Shown here piece after piece: positions 30,555 to 53,823 of a stretch of 57,738 nucleotides of DNA. Within the stretch, counting starts at the first letter, position 1. Every line of letters begins with the position of its first letter. The stretch covers positions 1-57,738 of the forward strand of contig JANOKZ010000090.1 of assembly GCA_031419515.1 (NCBI GenBank), written 5' to 3'. Source of the stretch: Hyphomicrobium sp. Lineage in GTDB: Bacteria; Pseudomonadota; Alphaproteobacteria; Rhizobiales; Hyphomicrobiaceae. The notes beneath the pieces were generated by a model. The model did no database searches. It was not told the origin of the DNA and saw only the letters and a list, made by a program, of their open reading frames with translations. A program made the translations under genes and the position numbers.

Positions 30555-30622
30555 GCGCTTGATGTTACGCAAGCGTGATGGCCGTTGACCTACAGGCCCG
30601 GGGCAGGCACAACAGGGCGCAT

Positions 30623-31976: not shown

Positions 31977-32549
31977 ATGAGAATACTCGGTTCATGCGCT
32001 GCGGCGCTCGTTTGGCTTTGGCTCTCTAGTTGCCCGACGTTTGCCGAACACCCCGGCCGCGCACAGGGCGTGACTCTCGATCCCCTGTTTGCATTGCAAT
32101 CGCACCAAGGCGCGCGGTTCACGCCCGATGATATCAAGGGGCGGCCGTTTATTGTCGTTTTCGGGTTTACACATTGCCCGAATGTGTGCCCGACCACACT
32201 TGTGGAAATGGGGCACCTGCTCCAGGCCTTGAAGGAGGGTGGCGACAAAATCAGTGTCGTGTTTGTGACGGTAGATCCCGAGCGCGACACCGTGGACGCA
32301 CTGAAGAATTATCTCTCGTCCTTCGATCCTCGCATCGTTGGGCTGACGGGATCGGTCATAGACGTGACGGCGGCGACGGCGGCGTTCAACGCGTTTTTCG
32401 AGAAGGTTGCCTCGGGCGGCGATTACACGATCGATCATACCTTGAAGGTGTTCTTCATGGACAAATACGGCCTGCTTGCCAAGGCGCAACCATCAGGCGC
32501 GAGCTTAAAGGACAATCTTGAGCTCGCGCGCAAGCTCCTCAACCAGTGA
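31977..32549 (+). CDS. SCO1/SenC copper chaperone
   Basis: Signal/anchor, FGFTHCPNVCP (CxxxC), VTVDPERDT, YTIDHT. Confidence 0.93.
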   Translation: MRILGSCAAALVWLWLSSCPTFAEHPGRAQGVTLDPLFALQSHQGARFTPDDIKGRPFIVVFGFTHCPNVCPTTLVEMGHLLQALKEGGDKISVVFVTVDPERDTVDALKNYLSSFDPRIVGLTGSVIDVTAATAAFNAFFEKVASGGDYTIDHTLKVFFMDKYGLLAKAQPSGASLKDNLELARKLLNQ

Positions 32550-33489
32550 GGCCGCTGCAGGCCGGCGGCTCTGCCAGCTTGCGGATGTCGACGGGAAAAA
32601 TTTCGCCGCGCTTCCAGGTTCGGAACGTGTAATCCAATGTGCGTCCTGTGCTCAAATCAACGATAGCTTCGCGCACATAACGGCCGCCGTTCTGCGTTTC
32701 GGCGGCAGATGTCAGAATGAAAGTCTGGCGCGGCGAGGTGCCGGCGAAATCTGGTGGCAGCCTGCCGGGGGAGGTACTTGGGGTTGGTCCGGCAGGCGAG
32801 ACAATAAGATGCCCGGTTTGCAGAATTGTGATGAGGCCAGGCGAGGCGGCCGCAGGATCGATGCCGGACATGCCGGAATGAACAGTCACATGCGGCAGCA
32901 GCGACTTGACGCGTTCTATGGTGAAACCGAACACGTGCTCAAGTTCTTCGATCGTGTCGAACGGCGCATTCTTTGGCGAAACTTTTAAGCCGTTCGCGGC
33001 GTAGCCGGCTTCTTCTGCGCCGCCGGGCAGAGGATCGCTATCCCGGTCGCGGAAATCGATGACCGCCGCCGCAGTTGCTGCTGCGTCCGCAGCGCTTGCG
33101 CCAAGCCCGGCGATGAGGGCGGCCAGCATCGCGTGGTTTGCTGCATTGAGATCGACGCGCCCCGACGCATCCTGGATCCGGATTGTAATCGTCTCGCCCG
33201 GGCCAGCCCGGCACGATCGGGGATCTGAGTTCCTGACGACGGCCGCAAATGCCGTCCTGCCACCGGCAGCTTGGATCAGATCGAGCACGGCCAAATGGAC
33301 GCCCGCATCTGCAAGAGCTTCGGCGCGGGCGCTATTCCGCACGTTAACTGCAATCCCAGTGTGGGTTCCGGCCGAATGCAGGAAGCCCGTGAGAATGAGT
33401 GTCAACAAAGCAATTACCCACAGCACGACGATCATGGTGAAGCCGCGGTCGGCTGTATTCACATCGCGTAACATGGGACGTCGGCTCAC
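32539..33489 (-). CDS. gspK: T2SS minor pseudopilin GspK
   Basis: RG/FTMIVVLW prepilin-like site lacking E5, ARAEALADAGV, DASGRVDLN, IDFRDRD, PKNAPFDTIEEL. Confidence 0.9.
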   Translation of the reverse strand: MSRRPMLRDVNTADRGFTMIVVLWVIALLTLILTGFLHSAGTHTGIAVNVRNSARAEALADAGVHLAVLDLIQAAGGRTAFAAVVRNSDPRSCRAGPGETITIRIQDASGRVDLNAANHAMLAALIAGLGASAADAAATAAAVIDFRDRDSDPLPGGAEEAGYAANGLKVSPKNAPFDTIEELEHVFGFTIERVKSLLPHVTVHSGMSGIDPAAASPGLITILQTGHLIVSPAGPTPSTSPGRLPPDFAGTSPRQTFILTSAAETQNGGRYVREAIVDLSTGRTLDYTFRTWKRGEIFPVDIRKLAEPPACSGLTG

Positions 33490-33528
33490 AAAAACTTAAA
33501 ATACTTTAGCGTGCCCAATCCCCAGAGC

Positions 33529-35958
33529 CTACCTGACCAGTGCGCGATCGATATTCTCGCGCTTATCGGGGGGCGTCTGGCGCTGCGGCCGGGTCGTGAA
33601 GTTCATCCTATCCCGGAATTCCGTTGCGATCGCACGCATTTGATTGGGATCCTTTATGATCTGCGGCGTGATAGCGATCAGCAGCTCGGTGCGGGCGATC
33701 GTATTGTCTTTGTTCTTGAAAAGGTTGCCAAGCACCGGGATGTCGCCAACGATGGGCACTTGTTGCTTCGTGACGGTGGTCTTGTCCTGCATCATGCCGG
33801 CCAGAATGATGCTTTCGCCATTGCCGACCGCGACGGTCGTCTTAATGCGCCGCTGCGTGATGGTTGGTGCGTCGATCCCTGAAGATTGTGTCTGAACGGC
33901 TTCGCTGACCTCCTGTTCGATATCGAGTAGGATGCGGTCATTGTCGCCGATGCGCGGCGTGATACTGAGAATGACGCCCGTGTTGCGGAACGAGATGGCA
34001 TTGACGATCGGTGCAGCCGGGGCAATGACGCTTACTGCCTGCTGCGTCACGATCGGGACTTCGGCGCCAATCTGCAGAACGGCTTTCTTGTTATCCATGA
34101 CGGTCATCGACGGCGACGAAACGATATTGACGTCGGTGATAGCTGAGAGCGCGTTCAAGGCGACCTGAACGTTAGGGGTATTCAGGAAGTAGGAAAATCC
34201 GGTCAAGGCGGGCGCGACTGCGCCGATGAGGCTATCGGTCAGTTTGAATTGATTGTTACCGTGTTTGAAAAACCACCTCAGGCCGAACTTAAGATTGTCG
34301 TTCAAGGTGACTTCGGCGATCGTCGCTTCCAGCAACACTTGGTTCGGCGCCACATCGACGCGCGATAGGATTTGCTTGATGCGTTTATACTCGCTCGATG
34401 TTGCCGTGATAATCAACGCATTGTTCGGTTCGTCCGCTACGATTTGGATGCCGCTTGTGCGATCGTCTGGCGACGTTTGAATTGAAGCGGTCTCGGTGCC
34501 GCTTGCAGCGGGGGCGGCGACCGCTCCGTCCGGACCCGAGGCAGTACTTGGCGGGCGGGTCGTATTCGGCGGCCGCACCTCTGTTGCGAAAGTCGGCAAG
34601 GGCTGGGGTTCGCCAAGCAAGCCTACGGTTGAACCGCCCGATGCCGAGGGTGCCCGCCCGGGCTGCAGTTCTGCCGGTTGCGACAGCGTTGCAAATGGGT
34701 CCGCGCCGAGCGGCTGTGCCAAGGGTTGCTGAGCCCGTGCTTGACCTTGAGACACATAAACCTTTTGCAGTATCTCGGCGAGTTCGGCCGCAGGGCGGTT
34801 CTGCACGTGATAGACGTGGACTTGTGCTTCGGCGGCTGCTCCGACGAGATCGATGCGTTTGATCCAGCCGGCCGCCTTGTTGAGGTATTCGGGCCGCGAC
34901 GAGATGACGATAATCGACTTCAGCCGCTTGTTTGGTACAAAGCGGACGATGCCTTTTGTAGGGCTTTCGCGGTCGTTCGCGAAGATGGTGTCGAGTTCTT
35001 GGGCGATGGCATCGGGATCGGACGTTTCGATGGGGTGGATAGCAACCGACATGCCGCGCATCCAGTCGACATCGAAAACCGACACGGTCTCGCGCATGGA
35101 GGCGAGTTCGGACGGCGACCCGGAAAGCATCAACAGGTTGCGTGCAGCATCGACGCGCGCGATTGCCACCTGTGGGGCAACTGACTTCAGAATGCGCTCC
35201 ATCTCGGCGGCGGCCACATAGCGCAACGACACCGCTTCGGTGGCAAGGCCGGCGCGCGTCGGCGGCGTTCCGCTGGTGATGAGAGTTGACGCAGCAGCCT
35301 CGTTCGACGGCACGATTTTGTAGAGGCCGTTATCGACCACGAGGGCGGCACCCTCCGAGCGCAAGAGCGACTCGAATATTCCGAGCAGCGCGTCCTTAGA
35401 GACGGGCTGGGCGGTATTCATCGTGACCTTGGCCTGAACTTTCTCGCTAACTATGTAGTTGACCTTGAGGATATCGCCGAGAATGGCTTTCGCGGCTTCA
35501 GCGGCTGTCGCGCCTGCGAGATTAAGCGTGACGCCCGTTGTTGTTTCGCTTGCGACTGCGTTCACGGGGCTTTGCGTTTGCGCCGGATTTAGGCCTGACG
35601 CATCCGCTTCTCCCGTGAAGACGCCGGAACCCTTGTAAACGCGGGCTTCGGCATTCGCGGTGCCGGCTGGATCAGACAAGAGGACGCCAGGGCGATGGCC
35701 CGCCGCTCCGATCGGGCTTCCTGGAGAAGCGGATCCGATGGGTTTTGGTAAAGACAATTGTTCTGACGCAAGAGAGCAAGCGCCAACGGCGGCGGTGCTG
35801 AGAACAATCAGCAATGTCCGGCCTCGACTTAGAACTGCGCTTGCTGCCCAACTGTAACGCAAAAAGCGTATCCTCTGAAAAAATATGGTGAACGTACACA
35901 CGAACTCCAGAGCTCTTTGCGCGTGCACGACAAGTCTTAGAGCACATTCTGGCACCAA
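33529..35958 (-). CDS. gspD: T2SS secretin GspD (start uncertain; probable lipobox)
   Basis: N domains, ADEPNNALII, QVLLEATIAEV, QIGAEVP, TGVILSITPRI, VPIVGDIPVLGNLFK, TELLIAITP. Confidence 0.93.
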   Translation of the reverse strand: MVPECALRLVVHAQRALEFVCTFTIFFQRIRFLRYSWAASAVLSRGRTLLIVLSTAAVGACSLASEQLSLPKPIGSASPGSPIGAAGHRPGVLLSDPAGTANAEARVYKGSGVFTGEADASGLNPAQTQSPVNAVASETTTGVTLNLAGATAAEAAKAILGDILKVNYIVSEKVQAKVTMNTAQPVSKDALLGIFESLLRSEGAALVVDNGLYKIVPSNEAAASTLITSGTPPTRAGLATEAVSLRYVAAAEMERILKSVAPQVAIARVDAARNLLMLSGSPSELASMRETVSVFDVDWMRGMSVAIHPIETSDPDAIAQELDTIFANDRESPTKGIVRFVPNKRLKSIIVISSRPEYLNKAAGWIKRIDLVGAAAEAQVHVYHVQNRPAAELAEILQKVYVSQGQARAQQPLAQPLGADPFATLSQPAELQPGRAPSASGGSTVGLLGEPQPLPTFATEVRPPNTTRPPSTASGPDGAVAAPAASGTETASIQTSPDDRTSGIQIVADEPNNALIITATSSEYKRIKQILSRVDVAPNQVLLEATIAEVTLNDNLKFGLRWFFKHGNNQFKLTDSLIGAVAPALTGFSYFLNTPNVQVALNALSAITDVNIVSSPSMTVMDNKKAVLQIGAEVPIVTQQAVSVIAPAAPIVNAISFRNTGVILSITPRIGDNDRILLDIEQEVSEAVQTQSSGIDAPTITQRRIKTTVAVGNGESIILAGMMQDKTTVTKQQVPIVGDIPVLGNLFKNKDNTIARTELLIAITPQIIKDPNQMRAIATEFRDRMNFTTRPQRQTPPDKRENIDRALVR

Positions 35959-36142
35959 GACGCCCGATTTCCCACAGTCTTAGACCAGCGGCGATAATTC
36001 GGGCCGGGCTGTGGCTTCACGGTCAACTGCACCGTGCCGGAAAGACAGGCGCCGCTGCGAATCGGTTTGCATAAAATTTGGTCAAGTCAGGCTCGCATCA
36101 GACCAAAGTTAGGGCTAGAGGCCGGACCATCGGGCATTCTCT

Positions 36143-36188
36143 AGATACTTAAGGGCGCGACCGAGAGATACTTAAGGGCGCGACCGAG
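36143..36188. repeat. Perfect 23-bp tandem duplication
   Basis: AGATACTTAAGGGCGCGACCGAG at 36143-36165 and 36166-36188, in the divergent gspD/MCO intergenic region. Confidence 0.95.
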
Positions 36189-36386: not shown

Positions 36387-37763
36387 ATGAAACGACGCGA
36401 TCTTCTCAAATACACGGGCTTCGGCGCCCTTGTGGCGGCCGTGAACACCTATCCCATCCGAGCAATTGCGGACACTGTCTGTGGTCCATGTTCGGGCAGT
36501 GACGGGGGCATTGCCGATGTTGAAATCCATCTCGCCATCATGCGCCAGAGCGTCGAGATGGTGGACGGCAAAAAACTCTGGATGCTCGGGTACAAAGACC
36601 TGGGTGGGGGGCTATGCACTACTTTTCCGGGCGATCCCAACAGCACCTGTTCAGGCGCGCGTATTCCGGGCCCTGTCTTGCGCGTGAAGCATAATCAGCG
36701 CGTCAAGATCACGATCGACAACCTCCGGGCCGAACCGCACGGTTTCGAAGTTACGGGATTTCCGGACTCAAAAATCGAGATTGCTGCGAATAGCTGCTGC
36801 TCCGTTACGTTTGCCGCCAGCCAGACGGGCACGTTTATCTATCATGACAATCTTGGCGGATCGCCGCTGTACCGTTTACTTGGATTGCACGGCGCCTTCA
36901 TCGTGCAGCCGGATTACGCCGCGCTCGCGCCAGGCGCGCTTATCACCCCTTACGCAAGTTCGCAGTTGACGCCGCAGGTTCAATCGATCTTCGAGGCACT
37001 TGGCGATGTGACTAAGGTCAACGGACGGTTCCCTGGCGGTAGATGGGCTCCGGCGGAGATCGGCCAGGCCTTCTCGGCGCAAGAAAAGATCTGGATGCAG
37101 ACCCAGGTCGATCCGCGCTTCAACGCGCTCCTTGAGGGGAACGATAGCGATCCCATCCGGTCCAATCCATCTTTGACGAGTTCGATTTGGGACACCTGGA
37201 CACCGCGCTATTTCACCATCAACGGGCGCAGCGGCTTCGACCTTTCCAAGCACGAGGATGTCGTCGCCAAGAATTTCATCGGCGAGCCGACGTTGATCCG
37301 CAGCTTGAATGCAGGCCTGGCGCATCATTCCAATCATATTCACGGCAACCATGTATTCGAACTGGCGGAATCTGTGCCGGTCCTCGATGCGTCCGGCCGG
37401 AATGCGAACACCGGCGCCATGATTGTCCTCGACAATGTGCCGGAGCGGGATGTTTGGCCCATGTGGCCGATGCAGCGCTGCGACATGCTGCTTCCTTTCG
37501 AGATGCCGCCCGACATTCCCTACAACCAGTTCGAAGCGATGGTTGCGCGCAATATCAATATTGACACGCAGCCGGCGCCGCTCGTGACGACTTTTGAGCC
37601 GTTCCCGCTGCGCTACGTGATGCACTGCCATTGCGAAATGTCGCAAACGGCGTCAGGCGGCAACTATCCGCAAGGTCTCGTGACGCACTGGGAATTATTG
37701 GGCGGTCTAGGCGGGCGGGCGCAGCTCGCTGCAAATGGCGGGTCTAGCGGTAGCGGCGGATAA
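36387..37763 (+). CDS. Tat-exported two-domain multicopper-oxidase-like protein A (intact ligand motifs only in domain 2)
   Basis: MKRRDLLK twin-arginine signal; IPGPVLRV, YFTINGRS; HHSNHIHGNH and YVMHCHCEMSQ in domain 2; domain 1 motifs degenerate (PHGFEVT, YHDN). Confidence 0.85.
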   Translation: MKRRDLLKYTGFGALVAAVNTYPIRAIADTVCGPCSGSDGGIADVEIHLAIMRQSVEMVDGKKLWMLGYKDLGGGLCTTFPGDPNSTCSGARIPGPVLRVKHNQRVKITIDNLRAEPHGFEVTGFPDSKIEIAANSCCSVTFAASQTGTFIYHDNLGGSPLYRLLGLHGAFIVQPDYAALAPGALITPYASSQLTPQVQSIFEALGDVTKVNGRFPGGRWAPAEIGQAFSAQEKIWMQTQVDPRFNALLEGNDSDPIRSNPSLTSSIWDTWTPRYFTINGRSGFDLSKHEDVVAKNFIGEPTLIRSLNAGLAHHSNHIHGNHVFELAESVPVLDASGRNANTGAMIVLDNVPERDVWPMWPMQRCDMLLPFEMPPDIPYNQFEAMVARNINIDTQPAPLVTTFEPFPLRYVMHCHCEMSQTASGGNYPQGLVTHWELLGGLGGRAQLAANGGSSGSGG

Positions 37764-37832
37764 AATACGCAGTGCGGAATGAGCGGATGTATAGATTTGT
37801 GACTGGCGATTTTTCAAGGGCGTATCGCCCGC

Positions 37833-39023
37833 ATGGTGATGGCAATGGCATTTCTTAACGCACCCCGGATTTCCGTCCCTTCTTTTGTCGAGCCTGTTCT
37901 CGGCCCGAAAACAACGGCGTCCCCGGGCCCAGGATTCGATAACTCCGGCCCGGTCGATTTCTCCGAAACCGGGGTCAGCGGCGACAATTTCGATACGTTC
38001 GGTTGCAAGGTCTTCAATCCGCTGACGGCGAAAACACCGGACTGGCAGTCGGCGAACGCTTATTTTGAACGCAAGTCGTTCAACGACGGTACACTCGTCA
38101 TGTCGGATGGCGTCAACATCGTCCACTGGGGTTTCGAAGACCGCCTTAGGCTCAAGGGTAAGAAATTTTTCCCCTCGCCGCTCATTCGCGTGCAAGAGGG
38201 CGACATGGTCCATGTCAAACTCGAAGCGCGTAACAATACGCACACCATCCATCACCACGGTATCGAACCCACAACCATGAACGACGGCGTTGGTCACGTC
38301 TCGTTCGAAACGTCGGGTGCTTACGTCTATCAATGGCAGCCCAAGCATGCCGGGACATGGTTCTATCATTGCCACAAGAACACGGTGCTTCACTTCGAGA
38401 TGGGGCTTTATGGTCTCCTGATCGTCGATCCCAAGCCCGATCAGTATGGCCGCGTCAACGCTTACACCGGCGGACCTTTCTACACGCCATCGCGCGAGCG
38501 TTTCTGGGTTTTCGACGACATTGATCCGCGCTGGCACACGCTGGATGACAATGCCGGATTGTGCGGCGATGATGCCGGACTGAATGTGTTCCAACCGAAG
38601 TATTTCTTCGTGAACGGCATCGAAAACACGAAGTGCAAGGCCCACACGGGCGTGCGCATCCAGGCTTACCCTGGCGAAAAAGTTTTGATCCGCATGTTGA
38701 ACGCCTCATATTCGATCGTGAAGGTGACAATCGAGCAGCTTCGAGGCGACATAATCTCTATCGATGGCCATGCTCTTAACACCAGCGAAAGGCCATGGAC
38801 GAGTTGGATTCCGGTCGCGGCCGGCGAGCCGATGTTCTTCCCTACCGCAACCAGACAGGACTTACTGATCGATCTCGACCCTACGAAAAACAGCTTTGTT
38901 CGCGGACGGGAATACAAGGTCGTCTTCGAATTCCAGGATTGGATTAAGCGTACTATTCATAACGCCAATGCGCCCAAGCCAGTGAACGTTGGCCGCGCCG
39001 AAACGGTTATCAAAATCCTCTGA
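37833..39023 (+). CDS. Two-domain multicopper-oxidase-like protein B (ligands only in domain 1; no signal peptide)
   Basis: FPSPLIRVQEGD, HTIHHHG, GTWFYHCHKNTVLHFEMGLYG; domain 2 (YFFVNG, IRMLNAS) has no HxH/HCH motifs. Confidence 0.87.
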   Translation: MVMAMAFLNAPRISVPSFVEPVLGPKTTASPGPGFDNSGPVDFSETGVSGDNFDTFGCKVFNPLTAKTPDWQSANAYFERKSFNDGTLVMSDGVNIVHWGFEDRLRLKGKKFFPSPLIRVQEGDMVHVKLEARNNTHTIHHHGIEPTTMNDGVGHVSFETSGAYVYQWQPKHAGTWFYHCHKNTVLHFEMGLYGLLIVDPKPDQYGRVNAYTGGPFYTPSRERFWVFDDIDPRWHTLDDNAGLCGDDAGLNVFQPKYFFVNGIENTKCKAHTGVRIQAYPGEKVLIRMLNASYSIVKVTIEQLRGDIISIDGHALNTSERPWTSWIPVAAGEPMFFPTATRQDLLIDLDPTKNSFVRGREYKVVFEFQDWIKRTIHNANAPKPVNVGRAETVIKIL

Positions 39024-39042: not shown

Positions 39043-39732
39043 ATGGCTTGGAAAGTTCTTGTGTTGGCAGCGGTGGCAATGCTGGTGACGGCGGCGCCTG
39101 CGTATACCCACAGCAAGGGCAAAGGCGTCGTCGTTGAAGAAGAACACACGGTAAAGCCATTCAAGGACGACGGTTATGCGATAAAGCCGCCCGAGCCGCA
39201 GTCGCTTGGCGGGGATTTTGAGATCGAAGATACCGACGGCAATACAGTCACCAGCGAGACGCTAAAAGGCAAGTGGACCCTCATCTACTTCGGCTATCCC
39301 AGTTGCCGCGAGGCCTGCCCCACGGCGCTGGAAAATATGACCCAGGCACTCATTCAAATGGGCAGCGAGGCGGAGGCGGTGCAGCCCTTCTTTGTCGATT
39401 TTTCGATGGAACGGCCGGACCCTAAGGGCGTTGCGCAATTCGTTTCCAATTTTCACCCCAAGCTCAAGGGGCTCGTTGGCTCACGCGCCCAGATTTTCAC
39501 ACTGCTCCGTTTGTATAAGGTCCGGCGCGACTACGGCAACGAGTTCTACAGCACGAAGGAAACGGGGCCGCGCATCGACCACACGACATATTTTTATCTT
39601 GTCGATCCAAGCGGCGTGACGCGAACTTATTTTTATCACACGCTGACGCCTGAGAAAATGGCAGCCGCCATTCGCGAACAGATGGCGCGTCCCCAAAAAG
39701 ACGCTGGGGCCCCTCCACCTGCCGTCAAATGA
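39043..39732 (+). CDS. SCO1/SenC copper chaperone
   Basis: Signal peptide, LGGDF, YFGYPSCREACP (CxxxC), IDHTTYFYLVDP. Confidence 0.92.
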   Translation: MAWKVLVLAAVAMLVTAAPAYTHSKGKGVVVEEEHTVKPFKDDGYAIKPPEPQSLGGDFEIEDTDGNTVTSETLKGKWTLIYFGYPSCREACPTALENMTQALIQMGSEAEAVQPFFVDFSMERPDPKGVAQFVSNFHPKLKGLVGSRAQIFTLLRLYKVRRDYGNEFYSTKETGPRIDHTTYFYLVDPSGVTRTYFYHTLTPEKMAAAIREQMARPQKDAGAPPPAVK

Positions 39733-40305
39733 TCAAGGCGCGGTTGTTTCAGCTTGACTTGCGGCCACGGGGTAAAGATCGAGCGTGATGGTTGAAGCGT
39801 CCGACGAGAGCGTGACGGTATTGGGCGCTATTTCCGATATGCGCCAGCCGTCAATTTCGTCTCCGATTTGAAGCCAGGATGCGGACGGCGACTGTGCCGA
39901 TTTCACGAGCGCACGACCCCGGCCATCGCCATCGCGCATGACGCCGACGAGTTTCAGTCCCTGCGGAGGCTTGATCGGCGGCGCGTCCGGCGGGGCTTCG
40001 ACGGCCTCTTCGATGACTGGCGGCGGCAGCGTCACTTCAGCAAAGAAAGGCTTGCGGCCGGCCCGGAATATTGGCCGCGCCAGTGTCTCAGTGTAGATTT
40101 TTGCGCGCGCTGGCCCTTGAGCGGAGCGTGGAACTTCGCTGCTCGTTCCCAAAACTGAAGGTGCGGTTTGTTCAAGTGCGATGGGTCGGATGTCATTTGG
40201 CGTAATCCAGATCTGCCAATTCAATAAGGCGAGCGCTGTGATCCCGCCGAGAAGACCGAGATTGCGCAGTATGCGCCATGTGCGGGAGGATTGTTGAGTG
40301 GCCAT
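39733..40305 (-). CDS. T2SS GspC/XpsN-like protein (TM + HR-like domain, no PDZ)
   Basis: Single TM, TLARPIF..RKP, Pro-rich linker, LKLVGVM..ALV..GDEIDGWRISEI; follows gspM. Confidence 0.7.
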   Translation of the reverse strand: MATQQSSRTWRILRNLGLLGGITALALLNWQIWITPNDIRPIALEQTAPSVLGTSSEVPRSAQGPARAKIYTETLARPIFRAGRKPFFAEVTLPPPVIEEAVEAPPDAPPIKPPQGLKLVGVMRDGDGRGRALVKSAQSPSASWLQIGDEIDGWRISEIAPNTVTLSSDASTITLDLYPVAASQAETTAP

Positions 40306-40310
40306 TGGCG

Positions 40311-40877
40311 CTATCCCTTCACAGACCCGGTTGCACCGAACACGTCGATATTGACGTCCAGCGGCGCCTCTGTTTTTGGATCTGTAGCGCCCGCGGCGAC
40401 GATACGAAGGGATTCTATTGTGAGGATCGCTTCGCTGTCTTCAATGGCGAGAAGTATTTTCTGAAGTTGTTCGAGTGTAGCTTGAAATTGCGCCTGGACT
40501 CCAATAAAGCGCACGCCTTCAGCGTCGCGCGCCGGCAAGGCTCTCGTACTCTTCAAACGCAAGCCAAGTATTGCCACGATTTTTGTAAGTGTGGTTTGGA
40601 GTTCCGCAGTGCGCAACGGATCGCTATCGCCCTTGAGCGTCAGCTTCCCGATATCGAGGGATTTGGATTTCTGTTCAAGCGTGGAGGCTTCACCTGCGAG
40701 GGTTTCGGCCGACAAGAGGCGGCCGAGGACTTCGCGCTGCTCGAGAATCTGGGCATTTTGACCGGCAATTGTCGTTGTCACGGGGGTCCACACGAAACTC
40801 CAAAAGCCCACGATCGCGGCGGCGAGCAGAGAGAGTGCGGCAAGCTGCCGGACCGGTTCTGAAATGCGCTCTATCAT
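40311..40877 (-). CDS. gspM: T2SS protein GspM
   Basis: N-terminal TM, coiled coil, AELQ..L, LQKILLAIE..LTIESL; follows gspL. Confidence 0.82.
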   Translation of the reverse strand: MIERISEPVRQLAALSLLAAAIVGFWSFVWTPVTTTIAGQNAQILEQREVLGRLLSAETLAGEASTLEQKSKSLDIGKLTLKGDSDPLRTAELQTTLTKIVAILGLRLKSTRALPARDAEGVRFIGVQAQFQATLEQLQKILLAIEDSEAILTIESLRIVAAGATDPKTEAPLDVNIDVFGATGSVKG

Positions 40878-42016
40878 TGCGCGGGCTCCGTTTTTGGTGT
40901 GACGGTTCGCGCTGTCGCGGGGAGACGGGTTTCAATTCGAAATTGCTCTTTGTTGGCGTTGGTATCGAAAAGGACGGGCGCTGCCATTGCGGCGCCTTCG
41001 AACAATTCCGATTTCTCGATCAAAGGAACAAGCGCTGCCGCCGACTGGGATAAGCCCGTGATGGAGATCTTGCCTGCGTCGATCCGGAAATCTGTCACAT
41101 ATGTCGTGTCGGGCAGCAAGCGCGTCAGTTCTTCGAGGATTTCCGGTACCGGAATGCGGCGCTCTTTGAGATTATGCAGGGCAGCTGCGCCCTTGAAGAC
41201 AGCCTCGGCCTGGTCGGCAGATTTCCTTAAGGACTGCGCCCGCGTTTTGGCTTCAGTCACCTTGACCTCAAGCGCCGCAAGCGCATTGTTGCCGCGCTGG
41301 ATTACCAATCCGGCCGCCGACCCCGCGAGCACCAGTGCCGTCAGCGCCATGATCTTTGCAAGCGTTTGCGGCCGGCGCTGCGTCGCACTTGCTGCTTGTG
41401 GCTTTGTGAGGAAATCGATGGGCAGCGGCGCCTTCCCGCCTTCGTCCCAGCAATCGGCAAACGCGACTTTGATACCTTGGGCGTGCAGCAGTTGTCTCGC
41501 TTCGTCGATGCGCTCCCGTTTGACGATGAACTGGCGCACCGCAATCTTGCCTTTGGGCGTACGCGGCACTCCTCGGTCTTCGTAGCAGGCTGTGTAGATA
41601 TCTTTGTGCTTGAAGGGCGTCGCGCGTTCAAGATCGAGTTCGAGGATGCGAGCTGCGTCGGCGCGTGCGGTATCTGGGAGTTCGACGCGCCGCTCGAAGC
41701 AAGCCGGTTTGGCGATGCGCAGTCCCAATGGAATGGCCCGGCGATGCGACGTTAAGCGTCGAATGAATTTAAGTGTTGCCGCGCCAGGTTCGGCGGTTGG
41801 CGACTCTGGTCCAATAGGCTTCAGACTTTGGTCTGTTTCATCAAGCCAGCGCACGCCGCTGTCGCCAATGGCCGCGATGATGCGGCGCTTGGGGTGAACG
41901 AATCCGGCGCGCGGAGGGCGCATGAAAATGCCGCGAAGTTCACGGCCCCACCAGGCGAAAAAGCCGGGTCTCTGGCCTTGTGCCGGGATATCTTGAGTTG
42001 CGATCAAAGTCTGCAT
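40874..42016 (-). CDS. gspL: T2SS protein GspL (PilN-like C-terminus)
   Basis: FFAWWGREL, LDLERATPF, TM, LEELTRLLPDTTY, AAALVPLIEKS. Confidence 0.85.
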   Translation of the reverse strand: MQTLIATQDIPAQGQRPGFFAWWGRELRGIFMRPPRAGFVHPKRRIIAAIGDSGVRWLDETDQSLKPIGPESPTAEPGAATLKFIRRLTSHRRAIPLGLRIAKPACFERRVELPDTARADAARILELDLERATPFKHKDIYTACYEDRGVPRTPKGKIAVRQFIVKRERIDEARQLLHAQGIKVAFADCWDEGGKAPLPIDFLTKPQAASATQRRPQTLAKIMALTALVLAGSAAGLVIQRGNNALAALEVKVTEAKTRAQSLRKSADQAEAVFKGAAALHNLKERRIPVPEILEELTRLLPDTTYVTDFRIDAGKISITGLSQSAAALVPLIEKSELFEGAAMAAPVLFDTNANKEQFRIETRLPATARTVTPKTEPAQ

Positions 42017-42155
42017 GTCAGGTGGGCTGGCTCGTTAACGTCAATACGCGGCTTGTTCAGTCGGGCCCGCGAACGGTCATATGATCATAGCGCAAATTCC
42101 GGCATTTCGATAACATGTCATTGCGGTCTCATGAGTTTTAGTTAGCGGGTTGCAG

Positions 42156-43910
42156 ATGTCGAATTCAGGTGCGGCGAAACCGGCGGAGCGCGCCGATCTG
42201 AGAAGCGATGATTTCGTGCGCCGGTTCTCAAGCCTTCTTGTCGATCAAGGCGCCATAGATGAACTCGCAGCACGCCGTGCCGAGCGGGCGCAAAAGCAAT
42301 CGGGCGAACGCTACGATTTCGTTCTCACGCGCTTGGGTCTCGTCTCAGAATCGGAGCTCATACGTTACCTCGCCCAGTATTTCGATCTTCCGCTCGCGAG
42401 CATGGAGAGCTTCCCGCAAGTGCCCTTGTTCGCAGGGCAGGTCGATGCCGCGTTTTTGAAGAGCAACGCGCTGCTTCCGGTTTTCGCAGGGCCCGACGGC
42501 GTAACGGTCGCCATTGCAGATCTTATGGCAAGCGACGCCGTCGCAGCCTTTGCCTATTTGATAGGCCAACCGGCAAACATACAACTCGCAGCCCGCAAGG
42601 ATATCGAGCGAGCAATAAGCCGGCTCTATGAGGAACCCGCAGTCACACCGGAAGCGGACGCGGCTAGCATTGGGCAAGACGCCGCGCATGACGAAGACGT
42701 CCGCCAGCTTGCCGATCTCGGCAGCGAGGCTCCAGTTATTCGTCTGGTTAACGAGCTGATAACGCGTGCCGCAGAGATGCAAGCATCCGACATACATTTC
42801 GAGCCGCGCGAAGATAGTCTCGTGGTGCGGTTTCGCATCGACGGCGTGTTGCAGACAGTCGAGCAATTGCCGCCTGGGCTGCGGCCGGCGGTGACGTCGC
42901 GTGTCAAGATAATGGCGCGGCTCAACATTGCGGAACAGCGCCTGCCGCAAGACGGACGCATCAAGACAACGGTGCGCGGACGCGAACTCGATCTGCGTGT
43001 TTCGACGATGCCGACGCTGCGGGGCGAAAGTGTTGTCCTGCGTCTCCTCGACCGATCGAGCGCTGCGCTCGATTTCGAGGCGCTTGGCTTCGATCCGACC
43101 GCACGAAAGAGCCTGGATGCACTGCTCAAAGAGCCGAACGGCATTATCCTCGTCACCGGGCCGACAGGCAGCGGCAAGACAACGACACTCTATGCGGCGC
43201 TTGAAAAGCTGAATGACCCCGGCCGCAAGATTTTCACAGTCGAGGACCCGATCGAGTATCAGATGGCGGGCATCAACCAGATACAAGTTCAGCCCAAGAT
43301 CGGACTGACGTTTGCCTCGGCGTTGCGGTCAATACTGCGCCAAGATCCTGACGTTATTCTGGTCGGCGAAATGCGCGATCTTGAAACGGCTGAAGTTGCA
43401 ATCCAGGCTTCGCTGACCGGCCATCTCGTCTTATCGACGGTTCATACAAACAGCGCCGCGGCAACGATCACGAGGCTCATAGATATGGGCGTTGAAGAAT
43501 ATCTTCTGGCCTCGAGTCTCAAGGGTATTCTGGCGCAACGGCTTGTGCGGCGCGTTTGTGGAGCTTGTGCGTCGCCAGTTGATGCAGGGTCTGTTGCCGC
43601 TGACCGGGTACGCGAGTTGGCAAAGGGATTGCCCCGGCTCTCAGGGCTGGCCGATGCCTCTCATATGCGAACGGCGGGCGGCTGCAACGTTTGCCGCAAC
43701 ACCGGCTATGCGGGCCGCACGACAATCAGCGAATTGATAGTCGTCAACGAGGACATCCGCCGCGCTATTCTTGGCCGGGCAAGCGAGGCCGCGCTCAACG
43801 AAGCGGCAGCCGCGCAGGGTATGACGGGGATGTTCGAGAACGGTCTTACGAAAGTGCTTGCGGGATTGACGACACTGGATGACGTGATGCGAGCGGTCAG
43901 GATCGAATAA
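42156..43910 (+). CDS. gspE: T2SS ATPase GspE
   Basis: ASDIHFEP, RLPQDGR, GPTGSGKTT, TVEDPIEY, LRQDPDVILVGEMRD, CGAC..CNVC Zn motif. Confidence 0.96.
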   Translation: MSNSGAAKPAERADLRSDDFVRRFSSLLVDQGAIDELAARRAERAQKQSGERYDFVLTRLGLVSESELIRYLAQYFDLPLASMESFPQVPLFAGQVDAAFLKSNALLPVFAGPDGVTVAIADLMASDAVAAFAYLIGQPANIQLAARKDIERAISRLYEEPAVTPEADAASIGQDAAHDEDVRQLADLGSEAPVIRLVNELITRAAEMQASDIHFEPREDSLVVRFRIDGVLQTVEQLPPGLRPAVTSRVKIMARLNIAEQRLPQDGRIKTTVRGRELDLRVSTMPTLRGESVVLRLLDRSSAALDFEALGFDPTARKSLDALLKEPNGIILVTGPTGSGKTTTLYAALEKLNDPGRKIFTVEDPIEYQMAGINQIQVQPKIGLTFASALRSILRQDPDVILVGEMRDLETAEVAIQASLTGHLVLSTVHTNSAAATITRLIDMGVEEYLLASSLKGILAQRLVRRVCGACASPVDAGSVAADRVRELAKGLPRLSGLADASHMRTAGGCNVCRNTGYAGRTTISELIVVNEDIRRAILGRASEAALNEAAAAQGMTGMFENGLTKVLAGLTTLDDVMRAVRIE

Positions 43911-45136
43911 TGCCGCGCTTCGCCTACAAGGCCTATGATCAATCCGGCACGCTTTTAACGGGGGCCCTTGAAGTGGCGACTCGCGAGGCCGCCCTGCAGG
44001 CTTTATCGGCACGCGGTCAGTTGGCCGTTGAGGTGACGGAGACGGCAGAAGCTGCGCCTCAGCCATGGTTGCAGCGCGAAGTCTTCGCGCCAAGAGCGTT
44101 AACCGGCGAAGATCGTCTGACGTTCACGCGCGAACTCGCGACCCTTGTTAAGGCCGACTTGCCGCTCGACGAGGCGCTCGGTGTTGTCGTTATAATGCCG
44201 GGACTAAGCGCTCGCGCCCGCGCTCTTGCGAACCGGATTCTGGATCGGGTGCGGGAAGGACAGTCACTGTCGCTGGCACTGGCAAGTCAGGGTGAAGCAT
44301 TTCCCGAATTTTATTGGCGGCTTGTGCGCGCGGGCGAAACCGGCGGCTCACTCGGCCAGGTCATGGGCGAACTCAGCACACTCCTTGAGCGCGCTTCAGA
44401 CACGCGCAGCCGGGTGGCGTCTGCCATGCTCTACCCGTTGCTGCTGATGGCTGCAGCTTTTGCCGCCGTTCTGGTCATTATGCTGGTTCTGTTGCCAGCT
44501 GTGATGCCGCTATTTGCCGAGGCGGGTGTCGAGCCGCCAATTGTTTTGCGCTTCATGTCGTCGATGCAGGCGTTGGCAACGGCGCATTGGCACGTGACGG
44601 CACTGGTTCTCGGTGCTCTTGTTTTAGCGGCCATGGTGCTGCGCCATGACGCCGGATTTCAGGCCGCGCGCGATAGACTGGCACTCCGTCTACCGGTTAT
44701 TGGGCGCTTGACCTCGCTGCGCGAGACGGGGCGTTTTTGCCGGACAATGTCTGCATTACTGAAGAACGGTGTGCCGCTCTTGGACGCGTTGCGAAGTACG
44801 GCTGGAGTTCTGACCAACGGGGTCTATTCCGAAGCAACCGGCACGCTCGCCGGAGCTGTGGCGGAAGGCGCGACGCTGTCGCAACAGATGCAGGCGTCAA
44901 AGCTTTACTCCGAACTCTCGGTGCGCTTGGCGGCTGTCGGCGAAAAGACAGGTCAGCTCGATGACATGCTGGCGCGCGCCGCTGCGATCCACGAGGCGAT
45001 GTTGGAGCGGGACGTCGATCGCCTGACGCGGCTCATTGGGCCGGTTCTGACACTCTTCGTCGGGCTATTCACTGGCGGCCTCATACTGTCTGTGATGCAG
45101 GCGATCCTCAGTATCAACGATTTGGCGCTCCGATGA
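43910..45136 (+). CDS. gspF: T2SS inner membrane platform GspF
   Basis: FTRELATL, VRAGETGGSL, AMLYP, VGEKTGQLDDML. Confidence 0.94.
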   Translation: MPRFAYKAYDQSGTLLTGALEVATREAALQALSARGQLAVEVTETAEAAPQPWLQREVFAPRALTGEDRLTFTRELATLVKADLPLDEALGVVVIMPGLSARARALANRILDRVREGQSLSLALASQGEAFPEFYWRLVRAGETGGSLGQVMGELSTLLERASDTRSRVASAMLYPLLLMAAAFAAVLVIMLVLLPAVMPLFAEAGVEPPIVLRFMSSMQALATAHWHVTALVLGALVLAAMVLRHDAGFQAARDRLALRLPVIGRLTSLRETGRFCRTMSALLKNGVPLLDALRSTAGVLTNGVYSEATGTLAGAVAEGATLSQQMQASKLYSELSVRLAAVGEKTGQLDDMLARAAAIHEAMLERDVDRLTRLIGPVLTLFVGLFTGGLILSVMQAILSINDLALR

Positions 45137-45606
45137 CGACGCTGCGGCCATTACCGGTGCGGTCCGGAGACGATGGGTTTTCGCTTCTCGAACTCGTCAT
45201 CGTGCTGGCGATGGTGGCGGGGATCACGGCTCTGTCCCTTCCAAACCTTTGGAGGAGACCGGTCGATGTAGCTTTGCGCGCGACCGCGCTCGATATGGCG
45301 GCGATGATGCGGGCGACACGCGCCGATGCTGTCCGCCGTAACAGCGAGCGCGCATTCTTAATCGATCCGGCGCAACGGACTTATTGGTCGGACGCCAATC
45401 CCGCGCCGAGGCCGATACCTGCCTCTCTTGGTATCGATGCGGACTTTTCAGCGCGAGCACGCGTGCAGACTACATCCGGCCGATATGCTTTCTTTGCAGA
45501 CGGCACGGCAAGTGGCGGCGCAATTGTTCTGCGCGAAGGCACTACAACCGCAACGATTGCGATCAATGGACTGACAGGCAACGCCGAGGTGCAATGGTCA
45601 CGCTAG
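45133..45606 (+). CDS. gspH: T2SS minor pseudopilin GspH
   Basis: G/FSLLELVIVL, FFADGTASGG, GLTG. Confidence 0.87.
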   Translation: MTTLRPLPVRSGDDGFSLLELVIVLAMVAGITALSLPNLWRRPVDVALRATALDMAAMMRATRADAVRRNSERAFLIDPAQRTYWSDANPAPRPIPASLGIDADFSARARVQTTSGRYAFFADGTASGGAIVLREGTTTATIAINGLTGNAEVQWSR

Positions 45607-46019
45607 ATGCGAGCGCCGGACGTGACAGCGGCTTCACACTGATCGAAGTGCTGGTGAGCTTCGCCATTCTCGTTGCGGCGGTCAGCATTCTCCAAAACGG
45701 GTTCGGCGGCGGATGGCGCGGCATACGTGCCGCGGAAATGGAGACGGAAGCACTCGAGATCGCCAAAGCGAAACTCGCAGCAGTCGGCATCGAGTCGACG
45801 TTGGAACCCGGCGTTGCGGAGGGCGATGCCGGCGGCGGCTACGCTTGGACGTCAACGATCGTGCCCCATGGGGCAGCGGCGTCTGATGACGCAAACAAAA
45901 TGCCGCGCGGGTACTGGACGACAGTGCAGGTCCGCTGGAACGACGGACGCGCACGCGGTGCGCGCGAAATCAGCCTGACGACGCTCAAAATCCGGCGGCC
46001 CGTGAGGGTAGACCCATGA
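45594..46019 (+). CDS. gspI: T2SS minor pseudopilin GspI
   Basis: G/FTLIEVLVSFAIL, YAW, VQVRW..LTTLK; start ATG 45594. Confidence 0.85.
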   Translation: MVTLDASAGRDSGFTLIEVLVSFAILVAAVSILQNGFGGGWRGIRAAEMETEALEIAKAKLAAVGIESTLEPGVAEGDAGGGYAWTSTIVPHGAAASDDANKMPRGYWTTVQVRWNDGRARGAREISLTTLKIRRPVRVDP

Positions 46020-46657
46020 TGCCGCAATCGCGCCGGAAAAATTGTGACGACGGCTTCACGCTCATCGAAACGCTCGTGTCGATCATGTTGCTGGCGCTGG
46101 TCGTGGCCTTCCTCCCAGGGTTGCTGCAACTTGGAACGCGCGCGATCGAGTCCCGCATGCGGCTCGACACGATCTCAGCGGCGGGGCCTGCGCGCCAGTT
46201 CATCGCACAACAACTTGCAAGCGCGACAGCTGTGCTGCAACGGGGCCCGGACGGCCGTCTGCATCTGGCCTTTACCGGCGCGAGGGACGCATTGGCTTTC
46301 GTCGCGCCCGCGTCTCTCGGGGCACAACAAACAGGCGTGCAGGATTACAGTATCGCTCTTGATGCTAGCGGTGCCGGTGCCGGAAATCCTGGGCGCTCGC
46401 TCTCAATTTCTATGCGCCCATACTTACTCCAAGGGGGCACGCCGGCAACAAACTTTGTTCTAATGCGTGATGTCACGACACTATCCTTCCGCTATTTCGG
46501 ACGGCGCAGCGGCGAGGAAAGTGCCCGCTGGCATGACGAATGGATCGGTGAGCGCGCGCTGCCGCACTTGGTCGAGATGCGGAATGGATTTGTCAACGCT
46601 CAGCCCGCAGCCGAGCGGCCGCTTGTTGTCGTGCTCAGGCTCGCGAATGGAAATTAG
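46016..46657 (+). CDS. gspJ: T2SS minor pseudopilin GspJ
   Basis: G/FTLIETLVS, LSFRYFG..WHDEW..LPHLV. Confidence 0.87.
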   Translation: MMPQSRRKNCDDGFTLIETLVSIMLLALVVAFLPGLLQLGTRAIESRMRLDTISAAGPARQFIAQQLASATAVLQRGPDGRLHLAFTGARDALAFVAPASLGAQQTGVQDYSIALDASGAGAGNPGRSLSISMRPYLLQGGTPATNFVLMRDVTTLSFRYFGRRSGEESARWHDEWIGERALPHLVEMRNGFVNAQPAAERPLVVVLRLANGN

Positions 46658-46675
46658 GCCCACGCTAGAAGATTT

Positions 46676-47146
46676 TTACCAGCTCACAAGGTCCTGGTCT
46701 TCGCCGGTGCCGCTTGGCGCGTTGTCCTGGCCATATGAGAAAATTTCATAAGGCGCGTGCTGTCCGGGCGAGCGGTAATTGTATGGACGTCCCCAGGGGT
46801 CAACGAGGCCGTTGGCATTTTTCAGATAGGGTCCGCGCCAGCGTGTGGCGCCTTGAGGGGCGGACATCAGTGCGCCGAGACCGGCCTCGGTGCTAGGGGC
46901 GGCCCCCATATCGAGGGCGTAGAGTTCAATTGCTGTTGAAATCGAAGAAATTTGCGCCTTGGCCGATACGGTCCGTCCCTTGCCCAAGTAGCGGAGCACG
47001 TTCGGTCCAACGACGGCGGCTAATAGTGCGAGGATGCCGAGCACCACCAGCAATTCGAGCAAGGTGAAGCCCGCAGCCGAATTGGCATGGACTCTAGATG
47101 GCACGCGCGCGGGCTGGCGGATGATACCGGGGAATCGAGCCTGCAT
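46676..47146 (-). CDS. gspG: T2SS major pseudopilin GspG
   Basis: G/FTLLELLVVL, AIELYALD.G..PSTEAGL.AL, WRGPYL..DPWGRPYNYRSPG. Confidence 0.95.
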   Translation of the reverse strand: MQARFPGIIRQPARVPSRVHANSAAGFTLLELLVVLGILALLAAVVGPNVLRYLGKGRTVSAKAQISSISTAIELYALDMGAAPSTEAGLGALMSAPQGATRWRGPYLKNANGLVDPWGRPYNYRSPGQHAPYEIFSYGQDNAPSGTGEDQDLVSW

Positions 47147-47251
47147 GAACCGCGCAATCCTGTGTGAAAAATGAGCCGCTTGATACTCTGCCCCGGCGTG
47201 CGGTTTGCAGCAAGTGTTGCGACATGCCAGCGTTAGCGCAGTGACGATTGA

Positions 47252-47797
47252 CTAGGCGGTGCCGATCCAGGCCATCCAAAAGCCAAACGCCAGAAACGGT
47301 CCGAAGGCTATGCGCGTCTCGCGGGTAAGCGCCCCACCACGAAGGGCGGCAACGGCGACTGCTGCTAGGGCCGACGCCGTGGCCCAGAGTAAGACCTGGC
47401 TGAGGGGCTCGGCACCGAGCCAACTGCCAGCGGCTGCAAAGAGTTTGGCGTCGCCAAGTCCAAGTCCCTGGCGGCCGCGCAGGCGCCGGTAGATCGCGTC
47501 AATTCCAGCGATCAGGATAAACGCGCCGGCTCCGGCGAAGCCGCGCTCTGCGAATGAAATACCGTCTCCGAGTATCCACGGCAGCGCAAGCCCGCTGGCG
47601 GCCAAGGGCAATGTGAGACTGTCGGGCAACCTCAAAGTGGCGAGGTCGATTGCGCTGAGGAAGGCGAGCGTTAATGCGAGGATCGCCGAGCACGCGAGCC
47701 AAACGCCAACGCGGCCTGACACAGCCGAAGTCGACGCAGCGATGAGAGAGTAAAGAAGCAGGAAAGCGGCTACAGGAAGGGCGGACGGTTTCACCAT
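47252..47797 (-). CDS. gspO: Prepilin peptidase (A24), short form
   Basis: IDLATLRLPD, GLGLGDAKLFAAAGSWLG, IAFGPFL; no N-terminal CxxC methylase domain. Confidence 0.85.
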   Translation of the reverse strand: MVKPSALPVAAFLLLYSLIAASTSAVSGRVGVWLACSAILALTLAFLSAIDLATLRLPDSLTLPLAASGLALPWILGDGISFAERGFAGAGAFILIAGIDAIYRRLRGRQGLGLGDAKLFAAAGSWLGAEPLSQVLLWATASALAAVAVAALRGGALTRETRIAFGPFLAFGFWMAWIGTA

Positions 47798-48550: not shown

Positions 48551-48611
48551 CTGTATTGCACGCTTGCGCCGTTGATTGCTAACCCATGCTTTGCTGGTGG
48601 GGGTCGATTGC

Positions 48612-51600: not shown

Positions 51601-51857
51601 GCGGTTCAGCGGGTAGCGGCTCATCGGGCAGTGGGAGCGGCAAAGTTGAAGGCGATAACCTTGCGTTTGCCGTTGGCTACGGCAACGACGCCGCCGACTA
51701 CTACGAAGATGAACACGTGTTCGACGTTACTGCGCCGATAGCAGACATGTTCGACGCGCTTCAGTTCGCGAATGCGCTGCACGACAATGGCAACGGGGAA
51801 GTCCTTGTCTTCGAGGCGTCCAACCTTGTCGTAATCCGCGACTTCGAAACACTTTAA
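48612..51857 (+). CDS. Large acidic Gly/Ser/Asp-rich protein, probable T1SS substrate
   Basis: No N-terminal signal; recurrent L.DG..VV.W-type beta repeats; Gly/Ser tracts; C-terminal DNLAFAVGYGND; directly upstream of the ABC/MFP pair. Confidence 0.75.
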   Translation: MANDFTGPGDFTGSGIDAPGSLAPGSTANDQFEKTAAWIAPDVNAPPGCGRIMLTRPGGAADEPDPVVAVPAGFSFLKKMFGVLAPDSPNVAGNIAIKSKSAANDNVVWVGVEDEAGDGGIYGSDVDAATLADGSSVVAWIGPDRVVHAKYYPAEGDGNGASAEEAAARAEYVGQLNELLSDLGGAGQRAGNADGRVKVTSYGQGGVAALWIADFGFTAALMGKLYMLQQDPAEDSTTGSPAAQTALWTVKDIAPVAVPKFASNISIDVSNDGQISVSYQSEPGDGGLKLAVSVDSGAASEDELRGSDEGDLLAPDAESSDLQVPHGSSVPVKVGNADTFQTNEAEAAAADGEIDAPADQGPARDDDSNGGSFGSIVPDVTSDVELIGTPVTIAGGEGDTVAQKKPQVVAQGDKIAVLHVSDGEKPGTSIIQVDLIDANGNPVIGSDGAPASVVVASDAIVEIPDKPFLELGPSISFAGDKVVVAYVSNSGDAEHTQYQINLQLIDDDGKLASDAPTVVALASDSETTYSDFDTAGLTTHHTTHHHENGDGSEYPDGGGSEQVGSDDDAGSSVTEPIHSEPLDTQGAQVAVVWVENANESGYGSIMGQLFAIVDRESDGQDGSESGDNSGRGNAGDYGQVLVALGLDGSAGSSGGDGDAAFQLPSETAQEVIGRAPQVSGCGDDGIAVVWVQESNPGSGIEVVAGTVLQTSGGISLLAINLTGLISNGILRGTEPSLLSNDNGDIVIGWVQSSSSGLYEAAVAVYRAIETGGWSVPDVAIVLRTFDSEPRNLDFGLQGGDDPTILLSWSSSGSRVSGARFDLDGIQEGSVFRIRGDDNDNAAEGDVSVAGLSDGHIVVVYTQADGADTDIGAMIVQTAPSSASDGSGDGGNSGLGTGSGDLNSDGGPSQIAIVVTTPTADNTDAGTMTNLVVVDLESDLIWVFDAGQFETSGATSSTSGSSSNSGSGSENSGSGSGGDGGSLNYAVNNDSAFDISGSGSAGSGSSGSGSGKVEGDNLAFAVGYGNDAADYYEDEHVFDVTAPIADMFDALQFANALHDNGNGEVLVFEASNLVVIRDFETL

Positions 51858-52017
51858 TCATCACGGGGCGTTCTGAAATGAGACGGCATGAAAAATGCAA
51901 ATCGGACCAGAAACAAGCGTTAACATTAAGGGCGCCTCCGGATGCTTTGACCGGAAGCGTTTGAGTGAGACGAGGCCATTTCGAGTATGAGTTTGTTTTA
52001 GTTATAAGGCGGGCGTT

Positions 52018-53751: not shown

Positions 53752-53823
53752 CGGCTAAAGCCGCCGCACCCCGGGCAACATGGGTTGGGGCGTTAAGAGC
53801 AGGTTCTATTTTCTAGGAACGAG

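Follow-up and report, generated by a model that had tools for sequence, protein, structure and literature searches.

The question raised by this locus is whether two adjacent genes, each encoding only part of the copper site of a multicopper oxidase (MCO), together make one enzyme. The genes, A and B, lie at positions 36387-39023 (+ strand) of a 57,738-nt stretch of DNA from Hyphomicrobium sp. (assembly GCA_031419515.1, contig JANOKZ010000090.1), referred to here as the window. To our knowledge, the described MCOs form their trinuclear cluster from one gene product, either inside a single chain or where identical chains meet. A and B are paralogues (99.4% probability in a profile comparison, E 4.9e-22), and both have the two cupredoxin domains of the fold seen in the structures 3g5w and 2zwn. 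We consider it probable, from the sequences, that they are obligate partners in a heteromer that shares the ligands of one MCO, is co-exported by the twin-arginine translocation (Tat) system, is loaded with copper by a SCO chaperone, is secreted by a type II secretion system (T2SS), and plausibly oxidizes Mn(II). Because each gene has half of the cluster histidines and only A has a signal, one co-exported two-subunit oxidase is the likely product. The features of the two genes are as follows, where T1 is the type 1 copper site and T2/T3 the type 2/type 3 trinuclear cluster.

36387..37763, + strand: subunit A, 458 aa, two cupredoxin domains and a Tat signal; domain 2 supplies four T2/T3 cluster histidines, and there is no T1 site
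36387..36470, + strand: twin-arginine signal peptide of A, with K-R-R-D-L-L-K, a hydrophobic core, and AIA
36735..36851, + strand: domain 1 of A with decayed copper motifs (PHGFEVT, YHDN)
37326..37343, + strand: A motif H314-x-x-H317-x-H319, with H317 and H319 as cluster ligands and H314 at a vestigial T1 position
37623..37676, + strand: A motif H413-C/D-H415 with the signature E-M-S-Q-T-A-x-G-G-N-Y-P-Q-G; the second T1 histidine is absent
37833..39023, + strand: subunit B, 396 aa, two cupredoxin domains and no signal peptide; the T1 site and the four cluster histidines are all in domain 1, with no ligands in domain 2
38241..38258, + strand: B motif H137-T-I-H140-H-H142, with H137 as T1 ligand
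38367..38402, + strand: B motif H179-C180-H181...H187..M190, with the T1 Cys, His, and Met and two T3 histidines

A check of the sequence found the open reading frames, the motifs, and the single Tat signal, on A, where the original prediction for this locus had placed them. The motifs of the window's A read H314-S-N-H317-I-H319 at 37326 and H413-C-H415 at 37623, and the complete T1 site (H137, C180, H187, and M190) sits on B alone, with no HxH in domain 2 of B. The prediction had described domain 2 of A as intact, which stands for the cluster ligands, as H317, H319, H413, and H415 are invariant in all 121 members of our A protein set (the window's A and the best 120 of 577 homologues), but not for the T1 site. 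The second T1 histidine after H415 is missing in 121 of 121 sequences and the T1 cysteine position is Asp in 42 of them, so that A lacks a blue (T1) site. Within the B-family set (n = 122, comprising the best 120 of 1458 homologues, the window's B, and a paralogue, B′, described below), 105 sequences retain the T1 His-Cys-His as well as the full set of four cluster histidines; of the rest, 16 belong to the ligand-less B′ group and one differs by a single substitution.

Loci were collected from genomes with A as the query (best 80 of 147) and from metagenomes with B as the query (best 80 of 365), in scans that are biased toward close relatives and conserved motifs. In the paired-locus set, made up of the 74 of 80 loci in which A and B are each present as a single intact gene (six were excluded for contig ends or frameshifts), the four histidines of A are present in 74/74 and those of B in 73/74, the one miss being at a contig end. 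HxH occurs in domain 1 of A at none of the 74 loci and in domain 2 of B at two, away from the motif positions. The identical split in 74 loci rules out an assembly artefact. The T2/T3 cluster of an MCO needs eight histidines, and eight are reached only by summing A and B (4 + 4). Given this chemistry and the ligand split, neither homo-oligomer should be able to form the cluster while domain 2 of A together with domain 1 of B could, so the survey backs both the predicted insufficiency of either chain alone and the predicted conservation of the ligand asymmetry among homologues. The T1 H-C-H is kept in 73/74 loci, with Met (59), Leu (10 of the 74), or Tyr (4) as the axial ligand. Tyr at this position, 190 of B, is also found in 9 of the 105 ligand-intact proteins, and such unusual replacements would shift the T1 potential.

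The two genes are strictly linked, as had been anticipated. B lies directly 3′ of A in 77 of 77 testable genome loci (the three others of the 80 stop at a contig edge) and A lies upstream of B in 66 of 66 testable metagenome loci (the other 14 of the 80 begin within ~310 bases of the match), which places A next to B in all 143 testable loci; in a delta-proteobacterial sample, 6/6 B genes are preceded by A. The nearest named relatives of A are from Hyphomicrobium bins (77-88% identity). Among the 301 genomes of the host family, A is found in 16 and the B family in 19, and 15 genomes have both. The single genome with A alone and three of the four with B alone have the gene at a contig end, and the fourth B-only gene is B′. 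The B family was found in 0 of 400 other genomes sampled at random from the phylum, and the A-B pair is therefore patchy. The pair is also seen in Candidatus Brocadia (loci L072 and L074) and delta-proteobacteria, and one locus (L205) has two tandem A-B copies.

The original prediction named commonly unpaired homologues as evidence that would count against it. Ligand-intact pairs proved to be linked, and unpaired relatives of B do occur, but these are ligand-less. They are represented in the window by the following gene.

55320..56453, + strand: B′, a ligand-less B paralogue, 47% identical to B and not part of the A-B enzyme

B′ lacks H137, H140, H142, and H179, and the window's copy, which has no signal, also lacks C180. 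Within the host-genus set (n = 64 genomes) B′ is found in 13, always in the order prtE-B′-histidine kinase, and nine of the 13 have no A. A quick tree places B′ as one clade derived from family B genes. It follows from this survey that unpaired B relatives exist only without copper ligands. B′ may possibly serve as a regulator or as a type I secretion cargo.

Nature has also joined the two genes. A-B fusions (707-1109 aa) account for 69 of 84 longer B relatives and are found in actinobacteria, Calditrichaeota, delta-, and apparently alphaproteobacteria. The strict ligand pattern, with the A motifs preceding those of B, is present in 64 of the 69; in four the sole deviation is that the A half lacks its vestigial histidine at the T1 position, and one was not examined. 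Twenty-two of the 69 were placed in a quick unrooted tree (71 rows), where they fall in four separate places among the split pairs, which suggests that A and B were fused more than once. The predicted fold of one fusion, P0245 (predicted local distance difference test, pLDDT, 91.5; predicted template modelling score 0.92), resembles factor V, MnxG, and ceruloplasmin (template modelling score, TM, ~0.55), with Mnx 9bxa as the second Foldseek match (TM 0.56, 13% identity). It superposes on residues 1-697 of ceruloplasmin (Z 24.0, root-mean-square deviation, rmsd, 3.9, 511 aligned), that is, on four domains of the six-domain ring, and this would put the A/B junction at a trimer-type interface. 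The B half of the fusion aligns with two-domain oxidases with Z 24.6 (rmsd 2.5, 261 aligned), and the top match of the A model is 3g5w (Z 27.6, rmsd 2.1, 264 aligned).

An interface between domain 2 of A and domain 1 of B, which the original prediction required, was obtained when the window's A (40-445) and B (20-396) were modeled 1:1 together with three controls. The A-B complex scored 0.93 and the best control 0.52; the mark against which such scores are read was attained by 116 of the 157 complexes with solved structures and by 2 of the 215 mismatched pairs, counts that are only roughly valid with the alignments used here. The runs share at least 86% of their contacts, with a partner pLDDT of at least 92, and five of the eight cluster histidines lie in the predicted interface (H317, H319, and H415 of A; H140 and H142 of B). 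Linkage, ligand asymmetry, predicted interface, and natural fusions thus all support the reading of an obligate heteromeric oxidase. PDB entry 9cck, considered as a possible solved heteromer, was ruled out because it is a single Nitrosopumilus protein in two lengths. Several His and Glu residues outside the canonical motifs are nearly invariant (H118, H168, H314, H322, E417, and H434 of A; H155 of B). Of these, H314, H322, E417, and H434 of A and H155 of B fall in the modeled interface, where they could make up an additional site for a metal or a substrate.

As regards export, A starts with MKRRDLLK followed by a hydrophobic stretch and a cleavage-like AIA-D site, and TatC is encoded in the host genome. 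The N-terminus of B has neither a twin-arginine (RR) motif nor a hydrophobic stretch, and an in-frame stop 12 codons upstream rules out a concealed signal. With RR signals scored by inspection and a simple pattern, 111 of 121 A homologues have RR in their first 45 residues, and the misses mostly lack their N-terminus. By the simple pattern, an RR signal is found in 8 of the 105 ligand-intact B sequences and a signal-like relic without RR in 32, and the other 65 have neither. The claim of only one Tat signal per pair therefore holds as a rule, but not for the eight B homologues that carry their own RR. Such a graded loss is what is expected under relaxed selection if the signal of B became dispensable under co-export. 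An RR on one subunit, none on its partner, and Tat in the genome are the pattern of Tat hitch-hiking, and we predict that B rides through Tat on the signal of A. Fifteen other long B relatives (P0314-P0328) have C-terminal extras and, by inspection, no signal; in four of five scanned chains the extras are carbohydrate-binding or Ig-like (four CBM35 modules, Ig-like or carboxypeptidase-regulatory repeats).

We therefore put forward a mechanism in which the ligands of a single MCO are divided between A and B as paralogous two-domain copper proteins. B would pass the Tat system on the signal of A, SCO would load copper, and the flanking type II system would secrete the complex. The substrate would reduce the T1 copper in domain 1 of B (H137, C180, H187, and M190), from which electrons would move through the H179-C180-H181 bridge to the T2/T3 cluster, held by H140, H142, H179, and H181 of B and H317, H319, H413, and H415 of A, where O2 would be reduced to water. 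In this scheme the ligand split, linkage, fusions, signal pattern, and gene context are direct observations, the A-B interface is a prediction, and copper content, catalysis, co-export, and secretion are inferred; the substrate and the stoichiometry are its least certain points.

The genes around A and B bear on what such an enzyme would do. Those of the surrounding island are listed here.

31977..32549, + strand: second SCO1/SenC chaperone (PF02630, E 4e-44)
32539..35958, - strand: gspK and gspD (secretin), divergent from A
39043..39732, + strand: SCO1/SenC copper chaperone, encoded directly after B as the third gene in the A-B operon (PF02630, E 2.5e-31)
39733..47797, both strands: remaining type II secretion cluster, with gspC/N-like, M, L, E, F, H, I, J, and G genes and prepilin peptidase
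48576..55125, + strand: 1093-aa acidic protein (no Pfam match), then type I secretion proteins PrtD and PrtE
56558..57738, + strand: histidine kinase that runs off the end of the window

A second contig of the host, C371, has a 62-nt exact overlap with the end of the window, so the island extends past it, with two response regulators and then the start of a MopA-like heme peroxidase. The N-terminus of this peroxidase is at G000:C371:2203-3047, and only the N-terminal 280 aa are assembled; a PF03098 search of the host genome gave no match, and the control sequences were also unmatched. In our neighbourhood set, made up of the 61 genome loci whose flanks extend to at least 8 kb, SCO is found near A-B in 53 and type I genes in only two.

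In the host genus the island occurs with one of two kinds of oxidase. A window-type secretin (54-100% identity) is present in 16 of the 64 genomes. A-B accompanies it in four of them, and the other 12 have a complete MCO in one chain, with a Tat signal, three domains, and all four motifs; the two kinds do not overlap and neither is found in the other 48 genomes. In 7 of the 12, the gene of this one-chain MCO takes exactly the position of A, divergent from gspD. It is a bilirubin oxidase/CotA-like protein of ~790 aa with inserts (for example L193:2773-5163, corresponding to G653:C15:40772-43159), its nearest solved structures are bilirubin oxidase and CotA, and it is followed by an SCO-cytochrome c fusion that resembles PP3183 next to mcoA (PMC2375017). 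The one-chain MCO may be McoA-like. A plasmid of Fuscovulum has the same island with the one-chain MCO (T2SS, MCO, SCO, response regulator, peroxidase, and type I secretion system, T1SS), and none was found in Erythrobacter SD-21 with the query used.

According to PMC13689576, Mn oxidation in Pseudomonas involves MopA together with MCOs that are accompanied by SCO genes and a dedicated T2SS. This gene set (MCO, SCO, dedicated T2SS, and MopA-type peroxidase) is found at the locus, though not in all A-B loci, and the kinds of neighbour (SCO, T2SS, two-component system, peroxidase, T1SS) are the same as for Pseudomonas putida McoA/MnxG with SCO, the Xcm T2SS, and MopA, and for MopA of SD-21. In SD-21, A-B-SCO lies 2.1 kb before the only MopA-type peroxidase gene of the genome, and the start of that gene matches a published mopA cloning primer (PMC6247904). 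MopA-like genes are present in 14 of the 15 other host-family genomes with A and in 69 of the 285 without A (kin are not independent) and, within the genus, a MopA-like match was found in two of the three other A-B genomes and in 7 of the 12 one-chain genomes. Since the pair adjoins a proven Mn-oxidizing enzyme in SD-21, Mn(II) is a plausible substrate. From this gene context we consider it very likely that A-B is a working exported oxidase, with Mn(II) as a candidate substrate, and for Mn(II) itself we would put the chances somewhat short of even.

Several observations weigh against our proposal. H413 of A and H179 and H181 of B are not among the residues named for the predicted interface, and the complex score may owe something to the likeness of A and B to solved homotrimeric two-domain oxidases. 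Kinship among genomes inflates the co-occurrence counts. Thirty of the 69 fusions have no RR in their first 40 residues (with start codons as annotated). The gene context is not universal, as a T2SS is found at 33/61 loci and a MopA peroxidase domain at 13/61 (a count of the peroxidase part only, with an RTX-only match excluded). Three of the 15 A-B genomes of the host family outside the genus also hold the one-chain MCO elsewhere, and three 100% complete genus genomes have the secretin and the one-chain MCO and no MopA match. The Brocadia (anammox) and delta-proteobacterial carriers presumably live without O2, where an O2-reducing role is less obvious.

The alternative that survives best leaves the heteromer as it is and changes only its substrate. 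A-B would be a laccase-like or other metal oxidase acting on phenolics, Fe(II), Cu(I), or iodide, with MopA as a fellow passenger, and if the heteromer exists this comes close to an even chance. MopA-like genes are common in the host family anyway (83/300), many A-B loci have no MopA-domain gene, bilirubin oxidase and CotA are the closest solved structures to the one-chain MCO found in the same slot, and some B chains have carbohydrate-binding modules. What speaks for Mn(II) instead is the enrichment of MopA with A in the host family, the position before mopA in SD-21, and an MCO-SCO-T2SS-peroxidase-T1SS set that is the same as in Pseudomonas Mn oxidation.

A working enzyme of three chains in place of a 1:1 dimer is unlikely. 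The nearest solved relatives are homotrimers, the 1:1 A-B unit amounts to two thirds of the usual trimer ring, and domain 1 of A is almost free of contacts in the 1:1 model. These points would be accounted for by a closed ring of three chains (A2B, AB2, or A-B-B′), a split version of the six-domain MnxG/Fox1 layout in which one interface holds the cluster and the other two are empty; the ligand-less B′ in the same island could be its third member. The four-domain A-B fusions are common, however, and cannot reach 2:1 by themselves. B′ as an obligatory third subunit is unsupported, with nine of the 13 B′ genomes lacking A, and it was not seen beside A-B in other genera.

It is improbable, in our estimation, that A and B bind each other while B leaves the cell by another route (the type I system or a cryptic signal) or that the complex is cytoplasmic in some lineages. 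The island does encode a type I system, and the eight B homologues with their own RR and the fusions without one could be read in this way, but type I genes are rare near A-B loci and B has no RTX repeats. The graded loss of RR in B fits relaxed selection under co-export, and Tat hitch-hiking is established for two heteromers, the NiFe hydrogenase HybOC and PaoABC (PMC4273604). Like A-B, these combine a signal-bearing and a signal-less subunit in one operon; unlike A-B they are not copper oxidases, whereas the partners A and B are paralogues with a cofactor that would be added after export by SCO.

Still less credible is a pair that does not reduce O2, either as a complex like copper nitrite reductase (CuNiR) or as one for electron transfer or copper holding. 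Taken singly, each chain best matches 3g5w and 2zwn, with CuNiR folds just below these two-domain oxidases, and copies occur in anaerobes. CuNiR lacks the eight cluster histidines, all of which are kept here, TIGR02376 (copper nitrite reductase) scores far below its cut-off (18.4 and 49.9 versus 296.3 bits), and the slot is shared with a complete one-chain oxidase. That the two genes are independent or decaying copies left by a tandem duplication, as the kinship of A and B might suggest, can be practically dismissed; this is contradicted by the invariant complementary histidines, the cross-phylum linkage, the repeated fusion, and the loss of ligands in the unpaired B′.

Among known systems, the proposed A-B heteromer stands closest to the two-domain MCOs 3g5w (Nitrosomonas europaea blue copper oxidase), 2zwn (metagenomic laccase), and 3gdc, which we take to be type C in the A/B/C typing of two-domain oxidases. 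Both chains find their best matches here, in sequence (~20-26% identity over the aligned parts) as well as in fold. As in B, the T1 site is in domain 1 and, as proposed for A-B, the cluster lies where domain 1 of one chain meets domain 2 of another. In type C enzymes one gene provides all ligands for a homotrimer with three clusters, whereas A-B would have two genes and one cluster per A-B, and no single chain of the pair has the T1 site with both cluster halves. In the six-domain MnxG/Fox1 oxidases the cluster lies between domains 2 and 3 (PMC3600357), and this position in MnxG and algal Fox1 is also the order found in the A-B fusions. A-B differs in having four domains on two genes and T1 in the third (domain 1 of B), while bacterial six-domain forms have T1 in domain 2. 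Heteromeric Mnx has accessory MnxE/F subunits in place of a shared cluster, and McoA/MnxG are single chains. The anammox MCO-HAO of a recent preprint (10.64898/2026.07.28.741245) is different, with a complete small-laccase domain. We found no description of the split A-B layout in the literature searched, which mostly excludes subscription journals.

With the T1 site on one chain and half of the cluster on its partner, the heteromer would, if real, represent a new type of MCO architecture, one that annotation demanding four motifs per gene would miss and in which the T1 and cluster halves could be mutated separately. The split pairs and repeated fusions would display the duplication-and-site-loss route proposed for six-domain oxidases (PMC3600357). 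More speculative, and in our view rather doubtful, is the broader idea that A-B is a new class of secreted Mn oxidase and, in SD-21 and in bacteria like Hyphomicrobium, the missing MCO partner of MopA. It would then also be an extant intermediate, re-fused several times, that links the homotrimeric two-domain oxidases with the fused multi-domain ones. A preprint (bioRxiv 10.1101/2022.11.10.515945) raises the question of a second, copper enzyme for Mn oxidation in MopA-bearing alphaproteobacteria, and SD-21, which is cultured and has the pair next to mopA, offers a direct test.

The remaining observations concern the island itself. The 1093-aa protein (48576-51857, + strand), directly 5′ of prtD/prtE, is very acidic and Gly/Ser-rich, has a 31% homologue at the same place in the genome G653, and is likely a type I cargo. 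A small Cys/aromatic-rich, secreted-looking open reading frame with no Pfam match (47791-48309, - strand) adjoins the prepilin peptidase gene, and its homologue in G653 lies beside gspD. The left edge of the island (29697-31601) has a phosphopantetheinyl transferase, a tRNA-like stretch, and an adenylylsulfate kinase. A promoter and terminator scan stayed at chance level. By eye, a 22-nt direct repeat-like duplication, tagatacttaagggcgcgaccgag, is seen twice between gspD and A (36140-36188) and is possibly a regulator site.

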